Shown here piece by piece: positions 50,761 to 57,513 of a DNA stretch of 64,000 nucleotides (position 1 is the stretch's first letter; each line of letters begins with the position of its first letter). The position numbers and the translations under genes are program-made. The stretch comes from Escherichia coli (GTDB lineage Bacteria; Pseudomonadota; Gammaproteobacteria; Enterobacterales; Enterobacteriaceae): assembly GCF_050920415.1 (NCBI RefSeq), contig NZ_CP169309.1; one strand, given 5' to 3'. Under the pieces are notes generated by a model, which saw only the letters and a program-made list of their open reading frames with translations, ran no database searches and was not told the DNA's origin.

Positions 50761-51156
50761 CTACAGCGTCATCACATTATTCAGCCGCCCTTCAAAATAA
50801 ATAGCTAACTGTGACAATGTCAAATTCCAGCTCTGAACTGGCATTGTCCATTTTTTCTGCGCATTCATCAGTCCCAGGTAAAGTAGCTTCAACAGGCTGT
50901 TTTCATTCGGGAAGGCACCTTTTGTTTTGGTCAGCTTTCTGAACTGCCGGTGAACTGACTCGATAGCATTGGTCGTGTAAATCACCTTACGGATACCCGC
51001 CGGATAACGGAAGTAATGCGACAGATTTTCCCATTTTCGCCGCCACGACTGAAGCACCACCGGATACTGCTGACCCCATTTCGCCTCCAGCTCGTCCAGC
51101 GCTGTTTCTGCCGCCTCCTTCGATACCGCACGGTACACCGGTTTCAGGTCGGCCAT
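50761..51156 (-). pseudogene. IS256-family (Mutator-like) transposase, C-terminal remnant
   Basis: 131-aa ORF matching only the C-terminal region of IS256-family transposases (...YTTNAIESVHRQFRKLTKTKGAFPNE.SLLKLLYL...); N-terminal two-thirds absent. Confidence 0.7.
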
Positions 51157-51170
51157 GAGCCAGGGAAAGA

Positions 51171-52307
51171 TTACGAAAGCCCGCTCCCCGCAAGGACTGA
51201 CGCCAGATACTTTCTGTCCATGGCTGCTTTTCGCATCTTACGTCTTAACCCTGCCTTGAATACCTTATCATTCGTCAAAATATTAATAGCGATGTGCCGT
51301 ATCCCTGAAAATAATTCTGCTGCATTTCCTCTTCTTATTTTGCAGTCGTCTTCATTCATTACCACGTCCAGACGCCAGTGCAGCTTATTCTCCACGTGCC
51401 AGTGATTTCGGATCGCTGTGGCGAACTTCTCTGCGGTTAAATCAGCAGAACTGATATAATATCTGACCGTCATTTCTGGCTCTTTCTTTTGTTCTGCTAT
51501 TATTGACCGAAAGGAGACTGCCACGCATAATTTCTTCAGACCTTTCCATTCAAACGTGAAATCAATAAGTTCATCAGGGACATCGCAAACAATATGAAGA
51601 CGGATTTCTTCTCTGCCGTGACTCTTTTCACTAATTGCGTAACTGTCATGCTCTGGATTATTTAATTCTTTCAGCGGAAATTTTTCCTCGAAGGCTTTAT
51701 TTAGCCGCCCCTGGTTTCCTTTTACAGCGAATAAATAATCACCTCCCTGTTTTTGTATCTTCTCTGCAATATCTTTCTGGCAACCCATCGCATCAGTTGT
51801 GATGATTTTTCCTTTAATATCCAGCATGTTAAGAAGTTCTGGGATAGCTGTAATCTCATTGGATTTCTCATCCGTCTTGATCTGTCCGATGACCAGACTG
51901 TGCATTGTTGAGAACGCACTAATGACATGAATCGCTCCCCTGCGGCGACTCTTGTCATAAGAGTGCCGGAGCGTTTTTCCATCAATTGCAATGACGTCTT
52001 TATCATCTGAAGAATGACATTCACGCATCCGGTTAATAAAGCATTCGTGAAATTTTGCAGGACTGATACATGATACAACTCTGGCAATAGTATCGTGAAC
52101 AGGAATACCATTTTCAAAATCACCATATTGCTTCAAAAAATCGAGATGAGTTTCCCCGAAATCCTCTATATCTTCCCAGCCTTCTGCACCCGAAATAACG
52201 GCGCAAATAGTCAACAGTAGAATATCCGATAATTTATGCTCCACTTTCCAGGCTTGTCTGTAATCGGGGATAATAGAAATATGTTCCATCAATTTTTTAA
52301 GTTCCAT
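51171..52307 (-). CDS. ydcC: ISAs1-family transposase (Rhs H-repeat-associated protein)
   Basis: 378-aa [40 protein letters not shown]..., the characteristic H-rpt ORF of E. coli Rhs elements. Confidence 0.9.
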
Positions 52308-52439
52308 TTTGTTCTCCTTAATTATGTAAGGAGTATTTGATCATGTATAAGCAATAAAAAACAGCTTCAGGTAATGAGGAATATCTCAATTTTTAAACAT
52401 AAAATGCGAATTGTTTAGTACAAAAAAGCAGCGTTAAGT

Positions 52440-54323
52440 GAGTAGGCCACCGGAACCTCCCCGACAGCCTCTCGCAGAACCGTACGTGAAACTCTCGCTT
52501 CATACGGCTCCCGTCAGGCAAACGCGCTTCCTGGTCCTGCTTTCCAGTGGGCAAACAACTCCGGCTTCTCTTTTGACAGTCTTTCCATTAGCTGACACGC
52601 CTTCGTCTTTCTATACCACAGGGTTTTATATTTCTTTCTCGCCCACGCAATCAGCGTCAGATTAATATATCTGCATACTTTCTTCATCGCTGATTTGTGG
52701 TATCTCGCGTAATAATTCAGCCACCCCGATATTATCAGATTCAGCCACTTCGCAATATCTTCGAGACTCATCTCCACCCTGCGTCTGATCCACAGTTTCC
52801 TGAGTTTTCCAATCATGCCTTTCTGCGCACGGTTACTCGCCGCCGGGCTGAAACTCGTAAAGAGGTTTCCCCGCCGGTGGTTACGTGCTCTTCGCGCTCT
52901 GAACGTATACCCCAGAAAATCAAACTGCACTGTTTCATGGTTCGCCTGTCGTTCGCTGTCTTTGCAGTAAACTATTTTCGTTTTCTCCGGATGTAATTCC
53001 AGTCCACATTCCTGAAAACGTTTTGCCAGCTTATTCAGTAATTCCTCTGCCTGTTGTTTACTGCCACAATGAATTAATCCATCATCTGCATAACGGCACC
53101 AGGGAATTTCCGGATAATGTAACGTCAGCCATTTATCAAACACATAGTGCAGAAATAAATTCGCCAGTACCGGGCTGATGACTCCACCCTGTGGCGTACC
53201 TTTATTTCTTTCCTTCAGTGTTCCATCCGGCATCTGCACCGGCGCTGTCAGCCAGCGGCGAATAGACAGTCTTACCCATTTATCCGCACAATGTTTATCT
53301 ACTGCCCTGAGTAATAAATCGTGGGGGATATTATCGAATAACCCTTTAATATCAAACTCAAGACACCAGTCGTATTGCCAGCAACGTTTTCTGGTGACTG
53401 CTATTGCATCCAGCGCTGATTTTCCATGCCGGTATCCGTATGAATCATTCAGGAAATAACGCTCCACTAATGGTTCAAACGTTACCAGCACCGTCATCTG
53501 CGCTATTCTATCGCTTACTGTCGGTATTCCTAAAAGTCTTTTGCTGCCATCCTTCTTCGGAATTTCCACCGCACGCACTGGCGGCGGCATCCAGCTTCCC
53601 GACGATAACCTGTTCCAGATTTTGTACAGATTTCCTTTCAGATCCCGCTCAAAATCTTTCAGCGTCTGGTTATCCACTCCGGCAGCTCCGGCATTCGCCT
53701 TTATCCGCCGGTACGCTTCCACCACATGCAATTTACTGACCTGAAACGGTTTTGTCTGTTCACACACAGTCTCCTCCTGCCTACAGTTGGGCTGTGATGC
53801 AGACTGCCCGACGCTGTCCCTTCGCTCCACGTTCATTACAAACGCTTCCTCACTACTACGAACAGCTCTGCCCCGGTTTCGCACATCGATACTCTCATAC
53901 TCATAATTTCGGTTATTTGTAATTCTCTCTTGACATTGCGACGACCGGTTCCCGTAGTTCCTGCAAAGAGCCCGATACAGCGTCATGCCTGCTATACACC
54001 GGACATCATTCACGCAGCATTCGGAATTCACCCGTAAATTAATCCCGGCGGTATCACGAAACCTCCGGTTTTGATGTCACTTAGGACTAACGACGTTTCA
54101 ACACAGGTTCGGGTTTACTCATCTCACTGTATCTCACATAGGATCAGATCTCGTCTGATCGTTCCCCCTGCGCTCACTACCATGGCTCTTTACCACAGCA
54201 GCCGGGGTTGTTTGGGACCGACTTCCGACAGCAGATCCCGGTGGGCCTGCCACCATCTCTTCACAAGCTTATGCTTATTACATGCAAAACGTCCCGTTTT
54301 GCATCTTTGTGCCTACGGCACAC
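52440..54323 (-). mobile_element. Group II intron (boundaries approximate)
   Basis: On the minus strand: 5' GUGUG-type start near 54323, internal RT/maturase ORF, and a canonical domain V hairpin GAGCCGTATGAAGCGAGAGTTTCACGTACGGTTC (plus coordinates 52477..52510) followed by a domain VI-like helix. Confidence 0.8.
52514..54031 (-). CDS. Group II intron-encoded reverse transcriptase/maturase
   Basis: 505 aa with RT motifs including YADD (RYADDGLIHC) and a C-terminal maturase (domain X) region; stop codon abuts domain V. Confidence 0.9.
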   Translation of the reverse strand: MNSECCVNDVRCIAGMTLYRALCRNYGNRSSQCQERITNNRNYEYESIDVRNRGRAVRSSEEAFVMNVERRDSVGQSASQPNCRQEETVCEQTKPFQVSKLHVVEAYRRIKANAGAAGVDNQTLKDFERDLKGNLYKIWNRLSSGSWMPPPVRAVEIPKKDGSKRLLGIPTVSDRIAQMTVLVTFEPLVERYFLNDSYGYRHGKSALDAIAVTRKRCWQYDWCLEFDIKGLFDNIPHDLLLRAVDKHCADKWVRLSIRRWLTAPVQMPDGTLKERNKGTPQGGVISPVLANLFLHYVFDKWLTLHYPEIPWCRYADDGLIHCGSKQQAEELLNKLAKRFQECGLELHPEKTKIVYCKDSERQANHETVQFDFLGYTFRARRARNHRRGNLFTSFSPAASNRAQKGMIGKLRKLWIRRRVEMSLEDIAKWLNLIISGWLNYYARYHKSAMKKVCRYINLTLIAWARKKYKTLWYRKTKACQLMERLSKEKPELFAHWKAGPGSAFA

Positions 54324-54398
54324 CGTGATCTTTCCCTGGGAATAAAAGAAAGTTCACTGTAGTTATTAATGATATTTACTTCTTCATTCATATTTTAC

Positions 54399-54788
54399 CT
54401 ATTTAGAAAAACATATGCTCGCTTCCTCCGTGATAGAGATAACATAATCAGGTATTATTTCAAATACAGGAGTAATTAAGTATGGTCTGGAGTAACCATT
54501 ATTAAAATCCACACTATCAACTAAAAAACTAATAATGCTATCTTTGTCAGAAACAATCAATGATTCTCGGTAATAAGTTTTTTTACCTTTATTTCTCACA
54601 ATATTCAGTGCAATGTAGAATCTATCGTCTATCATAATGTCAGAAAGATTTTTAACATGATCTACCCAAGTGATGCTTCGACATTGCTCTTTTTTATTGA
54701 GCATTGCAAAAAAAATATCTTCTTTCACTTTCTCACTTGGTAACTGACTTAAAGGTTTTATACCTGTAAATATAAATTTAGTTTTCAT
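54399..54788 (-). CDS. Hypothetical protein (AT-rich accessory ORF D)
   Basis: 129-aa ORF, no recognisable family from sequence alone; 72 bp upstream of the intron 5' end. Confidence 0.5.
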   Translation of the reverse strand: MKTKFIFTGIKPLSQLPSEKVKEDIFFAMLNKKEQCRSITWVDHVKNLSDIMIDDRFYIALNIVRNKGKKTYYRESLIVSDKDSIISFLVDSVDFNNGYSRPYLITPVFEIIPDYVISITEEASICFSK

Positions 54789-54818
54789 ATTGGCTAATTC
54801 GTTTGAAGAGTTGCTACT

Positions 54819-55241
54819 TTATTCAATCCAGTAAGCTAGTCGCTCTCCAGAACTTAGATTTTCCCTTTTGTAATAAAATACCGTATCGAAATTAAGTGAA
54901 ATGTTTGCCGCTATAACTTTAAACTGTAATATTGACTCGGAATAAAACTCGAGAATAATATTAGCATCATTATCATCGTTAATTATTTTTAGTTTCATAA
55001 AATCATCAAGAGGATCACAAGTCCAGTGCGTATCACCACTCATGTAAGATGGTGCATTTATTATTATTTCAAAATTATGATAGTACGAAAGATCACTACT
55101 GCCAACGATAATTAATCGCCCATTACTATAGAGATAAATTTCAAAATCTATCCAACAGTTATTTCTGTAATTACGCCTAATTTCGTCCACTACATTTTGT
55201 TGTTTCATTTTGGATTCTTGTAAAAGATAATTACTACGCAT
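54819..55241 (-). CDS. Hypothetical protein (accessory ORF C)
   Basis: 140-aa acidic ORF, low GC, no TM segments. Confidence 0.5.
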   Translation of the reverse strand: MRSNYLLQESKMKQQNVVDEIRRNYRNNCWIDFEIYLYSNGRLIIVGSSDLSYYHNFEIIINAPSYMSGDTHWTCDPLDDFMKLKIINDDNDANIILEFYSESILQFKVIAANISLNFDTVFYYKRENLSSGERLAYWIE

Positions 55242-55285
55242 TGACTAAGTGAAATATTATCTTCTATAGATCGTATCTGTAAAAT

Positions 55286-55618
55286 TTAAAATGTGTTAAC
55301 TTCACTTCTTAATAATACAAATTCCTCCAGGCTTAATATTTTATTTTTTAATTCATCATGCCTGATCGTATCATTGATATAGAGAAGATAAGTATACTCA
55401 GGATAATCGACCTCATCCACTACGCCATCCAAAACATCATAATTTTCTTTTAGAAGAAAATGTTCATGTCTTTTGTCTCCGGGCAATAAATAGATTCCGC
55501 CATAATAAAGGCTTTCTTTCTCTTTAAATGTGATTTTTATCAGATCTTCTAACATCTTCTGCGCATCATATATTTCCACCCCATAATATCCATACAAGTC
55601 ATAATAACCCATTCCCAT
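55286..55618 (-). CDS. Hypothetical protein (accessory ORF B)
   Basis: 110-aa ORF with ATG start preceded by AGGTGA RBS. Confidence 0.55.
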   Translation of the reverse strand: MGMGYYDLYGYYGVEIYDAQKMLEDLIKITFKEKESLYYGGIYLLPGDKRHEHFLLKENYDVLDGVVDEVDYPEYTYLLYINDTIRHDELKNKILSLEEFVLLRSEVNTF

Positions 55619-55639
55619 TTCACCTGTTTGAATTTGTAT

Positions 55640-55840
55640 TCATTCACCCTCACGGGATTTACCAATTACATTCAGCAGTGGCATTAAATGTAATGTTACA
55701 AAACTATCACATCTTTCCTGAATTATCATTTGGATATAATGTTTTGTGTCATTGCTACCATATTCAGCCATATAGAATATTACTGCGTCCATTATATCTC
55801 TTTCATAGTTTTCTAATGCATCAACAAATACATCAACCAA
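55640..55840 (-). CDS. Hypothetical small ORF (accessory ORF A), possibly a remnant
   Basis: 66-aa frame with only a TTG start and no clear RBS; the frame is closed by stops just upstream; in the same frame as ORF B, separated by one TGA. Confidence 0.3.
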   Translation of the reverse strand: MVDVFVDALENYERDIMDAVIFYMAEYGSNDTKHYIQMIIQERCDSFVTLHLMPLLNVIGKSREGE

Positions 55841-56050
55841 AGTATTAACGTCTTTACTTGATGGATGCTCTGAAAGATTATTTTCATTTGTGAGAATCTG
55901 AATCGTACCATTACGATTCTCTTAGAAATATCATTAAATACGCTACCGCCCTACCCTGATAGACTGGCCCCCTGAATCTCCAGACAACCAGTATCACTTA
56001 AATAAGTGATAGTCTTAATACTAGTTTTTAGACTAGTCATTGGAGAACAG

Positions 56051-56416
56051 ATGATTGATGTCTTAGGGCCGGAGAAACGCAGACGGCGTACCACACAGGA
56101 AAAGATCGCAATTGTTCAGCAGAGCTTTGAACCGGGGATGACGGTCTCCCTCGTTGCCCGGCAACATGGTGTAGCAGCCAGCCAGTTATTTCTCTGGCGT
56201 AAGCAATACCAGGAAGGAAGTCTTACTGCTGTCGCCGCCGGAGAACAGGTTGTTCCTGCCTCTGAACTTGCTGCCGCCATGAAGCAGATTAAAGAACTCC
56301 AGCGCCTGCTCGGCAAGAAAACGATGGAAAATGAACTCCTCAAAGAAGCCGTTGAATATGGACGGGCAAAAAAGTGGATAGCGCACGCGCCCTTATTGCC
56401 CGGGGATGGGGAGTAA
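56051..56416 (+). CDS. insC: IS2 transposase OrfA
   Basis: 121-aa product [47 protein letters not shown]... Confidence 0.95.
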
Positions 56417-57279
56417 GCTTAGTCAGCCGTTGTCTCCGGGTGTCGCGTGCGCAGTTGCACGTCATTCTCAGACGAACCGATGACTGGATGGATGGCCGCC
56501 GCAGTCGTCACACTGATGATACGGATGTGCTTCTCCGTATACACCATGTTATCGGAGAGCTGCCCACGTATGGTTATCGTCGGGTATGGGCGCTGCTTCG
56601 CAGACAGGCAGAACTTGATGGTATGCCTGCGATCAATGCCAAACGTGTTTACCGGATCATGCGCCAGAATGCGCTGTTGCTTGAGCGAAAACCTGCTGTA
56701 CCGCCATCGAAACGGGCACATACAGGCAGAGTGGCCGTGAAAGAAAGCAATCAGCGATGGTGCTCTGACGGGTTCGAGTTCTGCTGTGATAACGGAGAGA
56801 GACTGCGTGTCACGTTCGCGCTGGACTGCTGTGATCGTGAGGCACTGCACTGGGCGGTGACTACTGGCGGCTTCAACAGTGAAACAGTACAGGACGTCAT
56901 GCTGGGAGCGGTGGAACGCCGCTTCGGCAACGATCTTCCGTCGTCTCCAGTGGAGTGGCTGACGGATAATGGTTCATGCTACCGGGCTAATGAAACACGC
57001 CAGTTCGCCCGGATGTTGGGACTTGAACCGAAGAACACGGCGGTGCGGAGTCCGGAGAGTAACGGAATAGCAGAGAGCTTCGTGAAAACGATAAAGCGTG
57101 ACTACATCAGTATCATGCCCAAACCAGACGGGTTAACGGCAGCAAAGAACCTTGCAGAGGCGTTCGAGCATTATAACGAATGGCATCCGCATAGTGCGCT
57201 GGGTTATCGCTCGCCACGGGAATATCTGCGGCAGCGGGCTTGTAATGGGTTAAGTGATAACAGATGTCTGGAAATATAG
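56374..57279 (+). CDS. insD: IS2 transposase OrfB (DDE integrase domain)
   Basis: 301-aa ORF overlapping insC in the -1 frame, typical IS3-family arrangement. Confidence 0.95.
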
Positions 57280-57513
57280 GGGCAAATCCACCTGATAACA
57301 TGATCTGCACTGCGTTATCATATCGACATGTTTCTCTATATGCGAAGAGATGTTTTATTTTCGGATTAAATTAAATTGATATTCAATATAAAATACAGAA
57401 TCACATCAGCGACATAAATAGTTGTAACAACTTCAATTACCATTCATAGCAAACAAATAGACGTCCAGTTAACTTTGCCGATGATTTATTAACATTAATC
57501 TCCGGCATTGTTG

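Follow-up and report, generated by a model that had tools for sequence, protein, structure and literature searches.

The window, by which we mean the whole 64,000-nucleotide stretch of Escherichia coli DNA analysed here, carries on its minus strand E.c.I9, a group II intron of E. coli, in a full-length copy inside the left end of an ISEc1 element, a reading to which we assign a probability of roughly 93%. This is an already catalogued intron in a known homing site and not a new retroelement. A first-pass annotation had described a group II intron with an uninterrupted RT/maturase tied to an Rhs H-repeat, and that description is borne out by covariance-model and profile matches, an empty site and EBS1/IBS1 pairing. 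The region can be described as a nested mobile-element pair, E.c.I9 within ISEc1, at a variable Rhs-type locus, and recognizing it as such is of value mostly for correct annotation. Feature coordinates are collected in Table 1.

Table 1. Features of the intron and its host element, with positions in the window.
Feature	Position	Strand	Evidence or remark
ISEc1/H-repeat (ISAs1-family) including intron	51161..54338	minus	3178 bp; 1291 bp without intron
5' exon, first 15 nt of ISEc1 left inverted repeat, CAGGGAAAGAUCACG	54324..54338	minus	empty site in strain 98194
Candidate IBS2, AGGG	54337..54334	minus	complementary to candidate EBS2
IBS1, AUCACG	54329..54324	minus	complementary to EBS1
Group II intron E.c.I9, bacterial class D, 1887 nt	52437..54323	minus	empty-site comparison, Rfam, match to reference copy
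Intron ends, GUGUG...CUACUCACU	54323 to 52437	minus	
Domain I, intron nt 6-372	53952..54318	minus	RNAalifold and pair counts against L004; contains RF01999 match
Candidate EBS2, UCCU, intron nt 238-241, hairpin loop	54083..54086	minus	pairs with AGGG at -14..-11
EBS1, CGUGAU, intron nt 266-271, hairpin loop	54053..54058	minus	pairs with last 6 nt of 5' exon
Domain II, intron nt 373-454	53870..53951	minus	helices 15-17; 8 pairs altered on both sides
Candidate gamma nucleotide, A455 in J2/3	53869	minus	partner is last intron nucleotide, U, 52437
Domain III, intron nt 456-514	53810..53868	minus	helices 18-20
Shine-Dalgarno, AGGAGGAG, strong	53779..53772	minus	5' of GTG 53767
RT/maturase in domain IV, 417 aa from GTG 53767 (probable)	52514..53767	minus	
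Alternative starts	ATG 53836; GTG 54031		440 aa (PGAP); 505 aa (longest ORF)
YADD motif, intact	53092..53081	minus	
Domain V, GAGCCGUAUGAAGCGAGAGUUUCACGUACGGUUC	52477..52510	minus	RF00029; compensatory changes relative to L004
Domain VI and 3' splice site	52437..52475	minus	RF00029 alignment, RNAfold
3' exon, remainder of ISEc1, starting UAACGCUGC	51161..52436	minus	
Transposase ORF, 378 aa	52307..51171	minus	NF033564 transpos_ISAs1

The exact boundaries of the intron (54323..52437) follow from comparison with empty sites in strain 98194 and K-12, where intron-less ISEc1 copies have CAGGGAAAGATCACG followed directly by TAACGCTGCTTTTTTGTAC across an insertion-free junction. The window junctions read CAGGGAAAGATCACG followed by GTGTGCCG and, at the other end, CCTACTCACT followed by TAACGCTGC, and excising 54323..52437 regenerates the uninterrupted ISEc1 end of those two strains, CAGGGAAAGATCACG joined to TAACGCTGC. 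GUGUGCCG opens the minus-strand intron at 54323, the position at which a GUGUG-type 5' end had already been read. Of the span first proposed, 52440-54323, this end stands, but the empty-site comparison places the 3' end 3 nt further, at 52437, which coincides with the end of the Rfam RF00029 model. An Rfam scan of the whole window gave only three matches above the gathering score, and two of them, in minus-strand orientation, bracket the intron: RF01999 (group-II-D1D4-2) spans 54254..54137 with 93.1 bits (gathering score 36) and came up again at looser settings, and RF00029 (domains V/VI) spans 52512..52437 with 62.8 bits (gathering score 40). The sense orientation of the intron is that of the ISEc1 transposase gene.

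Among the catalogued E. coli introns, the element matches E.c.I9, with 96.1% identity to its reference copy. Leclercq and Cordaux (2012; PMC3522654) give E.c.I9-1 its 100% reference at NC_010468 2411599-2413485 (Table S3), exactly where the ATCC 8739 copy lies, and describe E.c.I9, a name taken from the group II intron database, as a class D intron 'in a Rhs region' (Table S2). The class D label used here rests on that Table S2 entry. According to the same authors, E.c.I2 and E.c.I9 differ in the position at which they target the Rhs IS, ISEc1-5 (PMC3522654). Our search for literature pairing a group II intron with H-rpt by those names retrieved nothing.

The longest ORF of the intron runs from 54031 to 52514 on the minus strand (505 aa) and is uninterrupted, as had been claimed, with no stops or frameshifts along its length. 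It scores 424 bits against NCBIfam TIGR04416 (group II intron RT/maturase; cut-off 300), and Pfam finds RVT_1 (E 7e-42) and GIIM (E 3e-11) in it and no other domain. The Pfam scan showed no HNH, endonuclease or DNA-binding extension, and the protein stops about 33 aa past the GIIM match. The nearest solved proteins are group II RTs, namely the GsI-IIC RT 6AR1 (E 7e-41) and 7UIM (E 4e-39); the alignment spans the RT fingers, palm and thumb, and the catalytic YADD motif and the RT blocks line up with those of solved enzymes. It is extremely improbable that the RT belongs to another bacterial system (retron, Drt/DRT defence, group-II-like or CRISPR-associated) with the intron-like RNA features a coincidence, since the weak secondary matches of the ORF to the Drt3a, Drt2 and retron RT models (78 against a cut-off of 200, 59 against 390 and 53 against 235) fall far below curated cut-offs, unlike the TIGR04416 match, two independent covariance-model matches flank the ORF in the correct order and on the correct strand, and removal of the element regenerates the IS end exactly.

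The first-pass annotation had given the ORF as 505 aa with a YADD motif and a maturase region. The open frame, YADD and GIIM are all there, but 505 aa is not the likely length of the protein. The coding region probably spans 417 aa from GTG 53767, because this codon is homologous to the ATG that stands just past AGGAGGAG in an E.c.I2-like relative from strain SCU-482, referred to below as L004. The C-terminus, MERLSKEKPELFAHW, contains the core PxLFAHW of the class D motif LX3AX3PXLF[V/A]HW. The full stretch reads M-ERL-S-KEK-PELFAHW in the window and departs from the motif at two upstream positions, where L is replaced by M and A by S. Values of dN/dS are 0.21-0.30 against other copies and 0.15 against L004, which indicates that the ORF evolved under constraint (purifying selection).

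The host of the intron is delimited by terminal inverted repeats, CAGGGAAAGATCA (54338..54326, minus) and CAGGGAAAGATTA (51161..51173, plus), which are the sole two matches in the window. Since these repeats enclose an ISAs1-family element around the intron, the intron lies inside the H-repeat and not "beside" it, as had first been written: it splits the left terminal inverted repeat of ISEc1 15 bp from the tip. The transposase ORF scores 410 bits on NF033564 transpos_ISAs1 and is annotated as ISEc1 in strain MFDS1022581, a genome with an identical intron. In BLAST comparisons with 5426 complete E. coli genomes, between-genome similarity begins exactly at 54338 (CAGGG), 15 nt 5' of GUGUG, and intron-less copies of the sequence 3' of the intron are nearly universal.

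A neighbouring but independent position, with the intron in plain intergenic DNA next to the H-repeat, would agree with the facts that it interrupts no ORF and that its 3' end lies 129 nt ahead of the H-rpt ATG at 52307, close to the 130 bp or so first estimated. We nevertheless consider this arrangement very improbable, and the empty sites and terminal repeats rule it out: in intron-less ISEc1 copies, the 15 nt 5' of the intron run on into the sequence 3' of it as one uninterrupted left end, CAGGGAAAGAT(C/T)A as the terminal repeat has just two occurrences in the window, in opposite orientations at 54338 and at 51161, and between-genome homology starts at the first of these positions. Because an insertion at the DNA level divides the left inverted repeat of ISEc1, this copy of the IS is probably no longer able to transpose.

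For the intron RNA, RNAalifold was run on the aligned 5' 564 nt of four sequences: the window copy, that of ATCC 8739, a further E.c.I9 copy and the L004 relative. The fold has a long-range helix that closes domain I (nt 6-372), and the Shine-Dalgarno sequence sits in the base of domain IV. Of the cells in the 158 predicted pairs, 96.4% are paired, and both sides are changed in 26 pairs of domains I-III, compared with 1-4 when partners are slid by 1-3 columns and 6.8 in shuffles; with three of the four sequences near-identical, this support is effectively two-lineage. The folding check proposed in the first-pass annotation thus returned domains I-III with 26 compensatory pairs. At the other end, the domain V hairpin that had been noticed right after the ORF stop begins 4 nt past the stop codon (52510..52477) and has an AGC triad, a 2-nt bulge and a GAGA tetraloop. 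The domain VI-like helix reported 3' of it is likewise present; its branch-point A, bulged out at 52443, stands 7 nt short of the 3' end. A455 is a candidate for gamma, and its putative gamma-gamma' pair co-varies, being A-U in the window and G-C in L004. EBS3/IBS3 and delta-delta' were not located with the three sequence types compared, in which no single domain I column follows the first base of the 3' exon.

Pairing of the intron with its flanking exon had also been named as a check. EBS1, in a hairpin loop of nt 263-272, and IBS1 form a perfect match, 6/6 Watson-Crick pairs. The EBS2 candidate offers 4 bp, and on this length the EBS2/IBS2 assignment is tentative; the homologous loop of L004, CCAG, pairs with exon CUGG in the same register, -14..-11. 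EBS1 itself co-varies with its target three ways: the loops of the window copy, of L004 and of ATCC 8739-type copies each fit a different target. In L004, the homologous loop CGUCCAG matches the 5' exon end CUGGACG. The loop of the ATCC 8739-type copy, UGAUGAU, misfits its own exon (...GAUCACG) and fits the IS-end variant AUCAUCG. This variant, ...GATCATCG, stands in front of the 193-nt intron fragment of O157:H7, and an intron-less variant end, ...GATCATC followed by AGAAGTTCAC, is found in strain TUM18530. The CGUGAU of the window matches the ISEc1-family end ...GATCACG followed by TAACGC, and not the variant ...GATCATC(G) followed by AGAAG. Such co-variation with two IS-end variants makes E.c.I9 a small natural case of target re-specification.

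The insertion locus is of RhsE type, next to yddH-nhoA. The best match (100%) is in strain MFDS1022581, with shared neighbours (yncG, a set of four small ORFs and, downstream, yddH-nhoA-narZ); the window and that genome are told apart by an IS2 insertion around 56000-57300. By BLAST, 82 of the 5426 complete E. coli genomes have close full-length copies, which occupy a minimum of three loci. One of these copies lies at the RhsC/ybgA-phrB locus of strain N96 and another by the T6SS vgrG cluster of FDAARGOS_1284. Both share the position within the IS with the window copy and are 98.8-99.5% identical to it. The occurrence of copies at several loci in one IS site could reflect retrohoming, IS transposition or H-repeat recombination.

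Most E. coli genomes contain dead 5' fragments only. Distant BLAST found fragments of nt 1-193 and 1-159 at about 100% identity in very many genomes, which reproduces the published 193-bp and 159-bp fragments (PMC3522654); the 159-bp E.c.I9 fragment is recorded in BL21/REL606 (PMC3522654, Table S2). The same search placed the L004-type relative, at 68.8% identity, in further E. coli genomes. Several full-length copies have decayed through an internal stop, a frameshift or an IS1 insertion. The intron family is largely going extinct, and the decayed copies fit the published picture (PMC3522654).

For the window copy, the analysis shows what the intron is, where it begins and ends, how it folds and pairs, that its ORF is intact and has been under purifying selection, and that it occurs at several loci. 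Its present-day splicing and mobility would follow a route that we infer from how the intron is built and from RmInt1, a class D intron studied by experiment. The intron would be transcribed by read-through from the upstream small ORFs. In a consensus scan, to be taken as a hint only, the minus strand showed no terminator-like site from the preceding ORF to the start of the intron; a consensus match, again a hint only, put a promoter-like site at 52349..52321, 3' of the intron and the sole one for the transposase. The 417-aa protein would be made from domain IV, would then bind its own RNA and would promote lariat splicing, with GUGUG as the 5' site and the A located 7 nt before the 3' end as the branch point. 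The resulting RNP may find intron-less ISEc1 left ends through EBS1 CGUGAU with AUCACG and the short EBS2 with AGGG, and the intron would reverse-splice into the target DNA. As the protein lacks an endonuclease, cDNA synthesis would presumably be primed by the nascent strand at a replication fork. The GC-skew profile was too noisy to place the sense strand of the intron relative to the lagging-strand template.

Whether the window copy is still active is, in our estimate, close to an even bet. The most serious alternative, which we rate a little below even, is that the copy is E.c.I9 by descent but a dead relic, its maturase or RT function lost through private changes or want of transcription, and passed down vertically as part of the RhsE-locus H-repeat. 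Set against six other close copies and the outgroup, it has six private substitutions, two of which change amino acids: P to L at 52737, in the conserved LNPxIxGW block of the maturase, and R to W at 52618, at residues 344 and 384 of the 417-aa protein. The locus is shared with the ATCC 8739 copy, consistent with vertical inheritance, the genome with the identical intron has about 5 H-rpt left ends and one full-length intron only, and extinction is the published model for these E. coli introns (PMC3522654). Against a relic stand the absence of stops and frameshifts and the intact catalytic motifs, D5, D6, branch A and EBS1/IBS1. The position changed to L is not invariant, and Q stands there in two active solved group II RTs, so that P to L is not obviously fatal. 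In addition, 99.5%-identical sister copies at other loci point to recent spread of the sublineage to which the window copy belongs.

A stronger version of activity, in which the window copy is an active, naturally retargeted E.c.I9 sublineage with EBS1 CGUGAU that recently spread to three or more loci, we regard as rather unlikely. If it is true, insertions into the terminal repeat would immobilise H-repeats. Its intact ORF and perfect EBS1/IBS1 pairing make the window copy the better candidate for an active class D intron, and the ATCC 8739 copy is the weaker one because it pairs poorly with its own exon and has P to L within its class D motif. For splicing or gene-targeting work with an E. 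coli class D intron, the window copy would be preferable.

The closest known system is the E.c.I9 reference of E. coli ATCC 8739 (NC_010468 2411599-2413485). It has the same length of 1887 nt and the same 5' and 3' ends as the window copy, with 96.1% nucleotide and 94% protein identity, and it occupies one and the same insertion point in the H-repeat/ISEc1 left end at one and the same locus, on the yddH-nhoA-narZ side. The two differ in the EBS1 loop (CGUGAU in the window, UGAUGAU in the reference) and in the first 10 nt of the 3' exon, which reflects two ISEc1-family end variants. Each also has a P to L change of its own, that of the reference within the class D motif (KEKLELF) and that of the window copy in the LNPxI block.

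The L004 relative, 1891 nt long, is more distant, with 67% nucleotide and 60% protein identity to the window copy. It shares the architecture, the GUGUG and CUACUCAC(Y) ends, an endonuclease-less RT/maturase (416 aa) and an ISAs1/H-repeat host, and its protein matches the class D motif fully. L004 has its insertion point within the transposase ORF, towards the 3' end of that ORF (CTGGACG followed by TGGTAATG), however, and not in the inverted repeat, and its EBS1 and EBS2 are altered to fit that site. By length and host context (PMC3522654), it is presumably E.c.I2 of UMN026.

E.c.I9 is a bacterial class D (IIB3) intron with an IIB-like RNA and an RT/maturase without an endonuclease domain, and the studied example of this class is RmInt1 of Sinorhizobium meliloti (class D/IIB3). 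The RmInt1 protein is likewise about 417-419 aa long, with RT and maturase domains and without DNA-binding/endonuclease domains. PMC4615759 describes the class D motif LX3AX3PXLF[V/A]HW in RmInt1-type proteins, which have no D/En domains, and the C-terminal PxLF[A/V]HW is shared with the window protein, a likeness drawn from the published motif. Splicing, retrohoming and a replication-fork bias have been demonstrated in RmInt1 alone. PMC4615759 and PMC8914252 present a lagging-strand model, in which the endonuclease-less RmInt1 primes its cDNA at replication forks. RmInt1 differs from E.c.I9 in host and target, but it too homes into an IS, which is ISRm2011-2 in S. meliloti and ISEc1 here.

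Dead 5' fragments of E.c.I9, the catalogued group II intron also present in the window, are widespread, with lengths of 96, 144, 159, and 193 nt, and each abuts directly, at its end, a fresh left end of the ISEc1 (H-repeat) family (C/TAGGGAAAGATCA...). At two of the comparison loci, L006 and L008, the full intron is additionally present within the new ISEc1-family left end that follows the fragment. This arrangement of the sequences suggests that the H-repeat inserted repeatedly into the 5' region of E.c.I9 and that the two IS copies then recombined.

Positions of features in the window and in comparison loci from other E. coli genomes (L handles, each in its own coordinates)
Feature	Sequence	Position	Strand	Strain
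E.c.I9 5' fragment to ISEc1-family left end junction	L013	1485-1720		O157:H7
E.c.I9 5' fragment to ISEc1-family left end junction	L014	1485-1680		BL21-type
E.c.I9 5' fragment to ISEc1-family left end junction	L006	5842-6015
E.c.I9 5' fragment to ISEc1-family left end junction	L008	5890-6015
Variable ISEc1 left-end bases	window	54324-54329
Variable ISEc1 left-end bases	L005	4009-4015
Variable ISEc1 left-end bases	L011	~378-400
Variable ISEc1 left-end bases	L013	~1490-1500
Variable ISEc1 left-end bases	L014	~1490-1500
Four small ORFs	window	54399-55840	minus
IS2	window	56006-57279	plus
IS256-family transposase fragment	window	50761-51156	minus
SECIS_3	window	33749-33807	minus

Upstream of ISEc1, the AT-rich DNA contains the four small ORFs, which are 129, 140, 110, and 66 aa long; none has a match in NCBIfam. 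The same position in other strains is occupied by an Rhs core together with toxin-tip and immunity genes. The window has no Rhs core gene at this locus. Because of the gene content in other strains, it is possible that the ORFs are orphan genes for Rhs immunity proteins or toxin tips. Between them and yncG lies an IS2 copy (TnpA repressor, 276 bits; TnpB transposase, 728 bits), which is missing from the otherwise identical locus of strain MFDS1022581. On the other side of ISEc1, 4 nt past its right end, an IS256-family transposase is represented by a C-terminal fragment, annotated in the matching genome as a partial pseudogene. Elsewhere in the window, a full-length SECIS_3 selenocysteine insertion element (Rfam, 84.3 bits against a gathering score of 63) is presumably within a formate dehydrogenase gene.

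In the ISEc1 left end, the few bases next to the intron site show unusually high variation among copies. Variants ending in ...CACG, ...CATC, ...CATCG, ...CACCG, and ...CATG precede the site, and the 10 nt directly after it occur in two versions, TAACGCTGCT and AGAAGT(A/T)CAC. In the reference intron of ATCC 8739, EBS1, the domain I loop that pairs with the last bases of the 5' exon, matches a different ISEc1-end variant from its present 5' exon.
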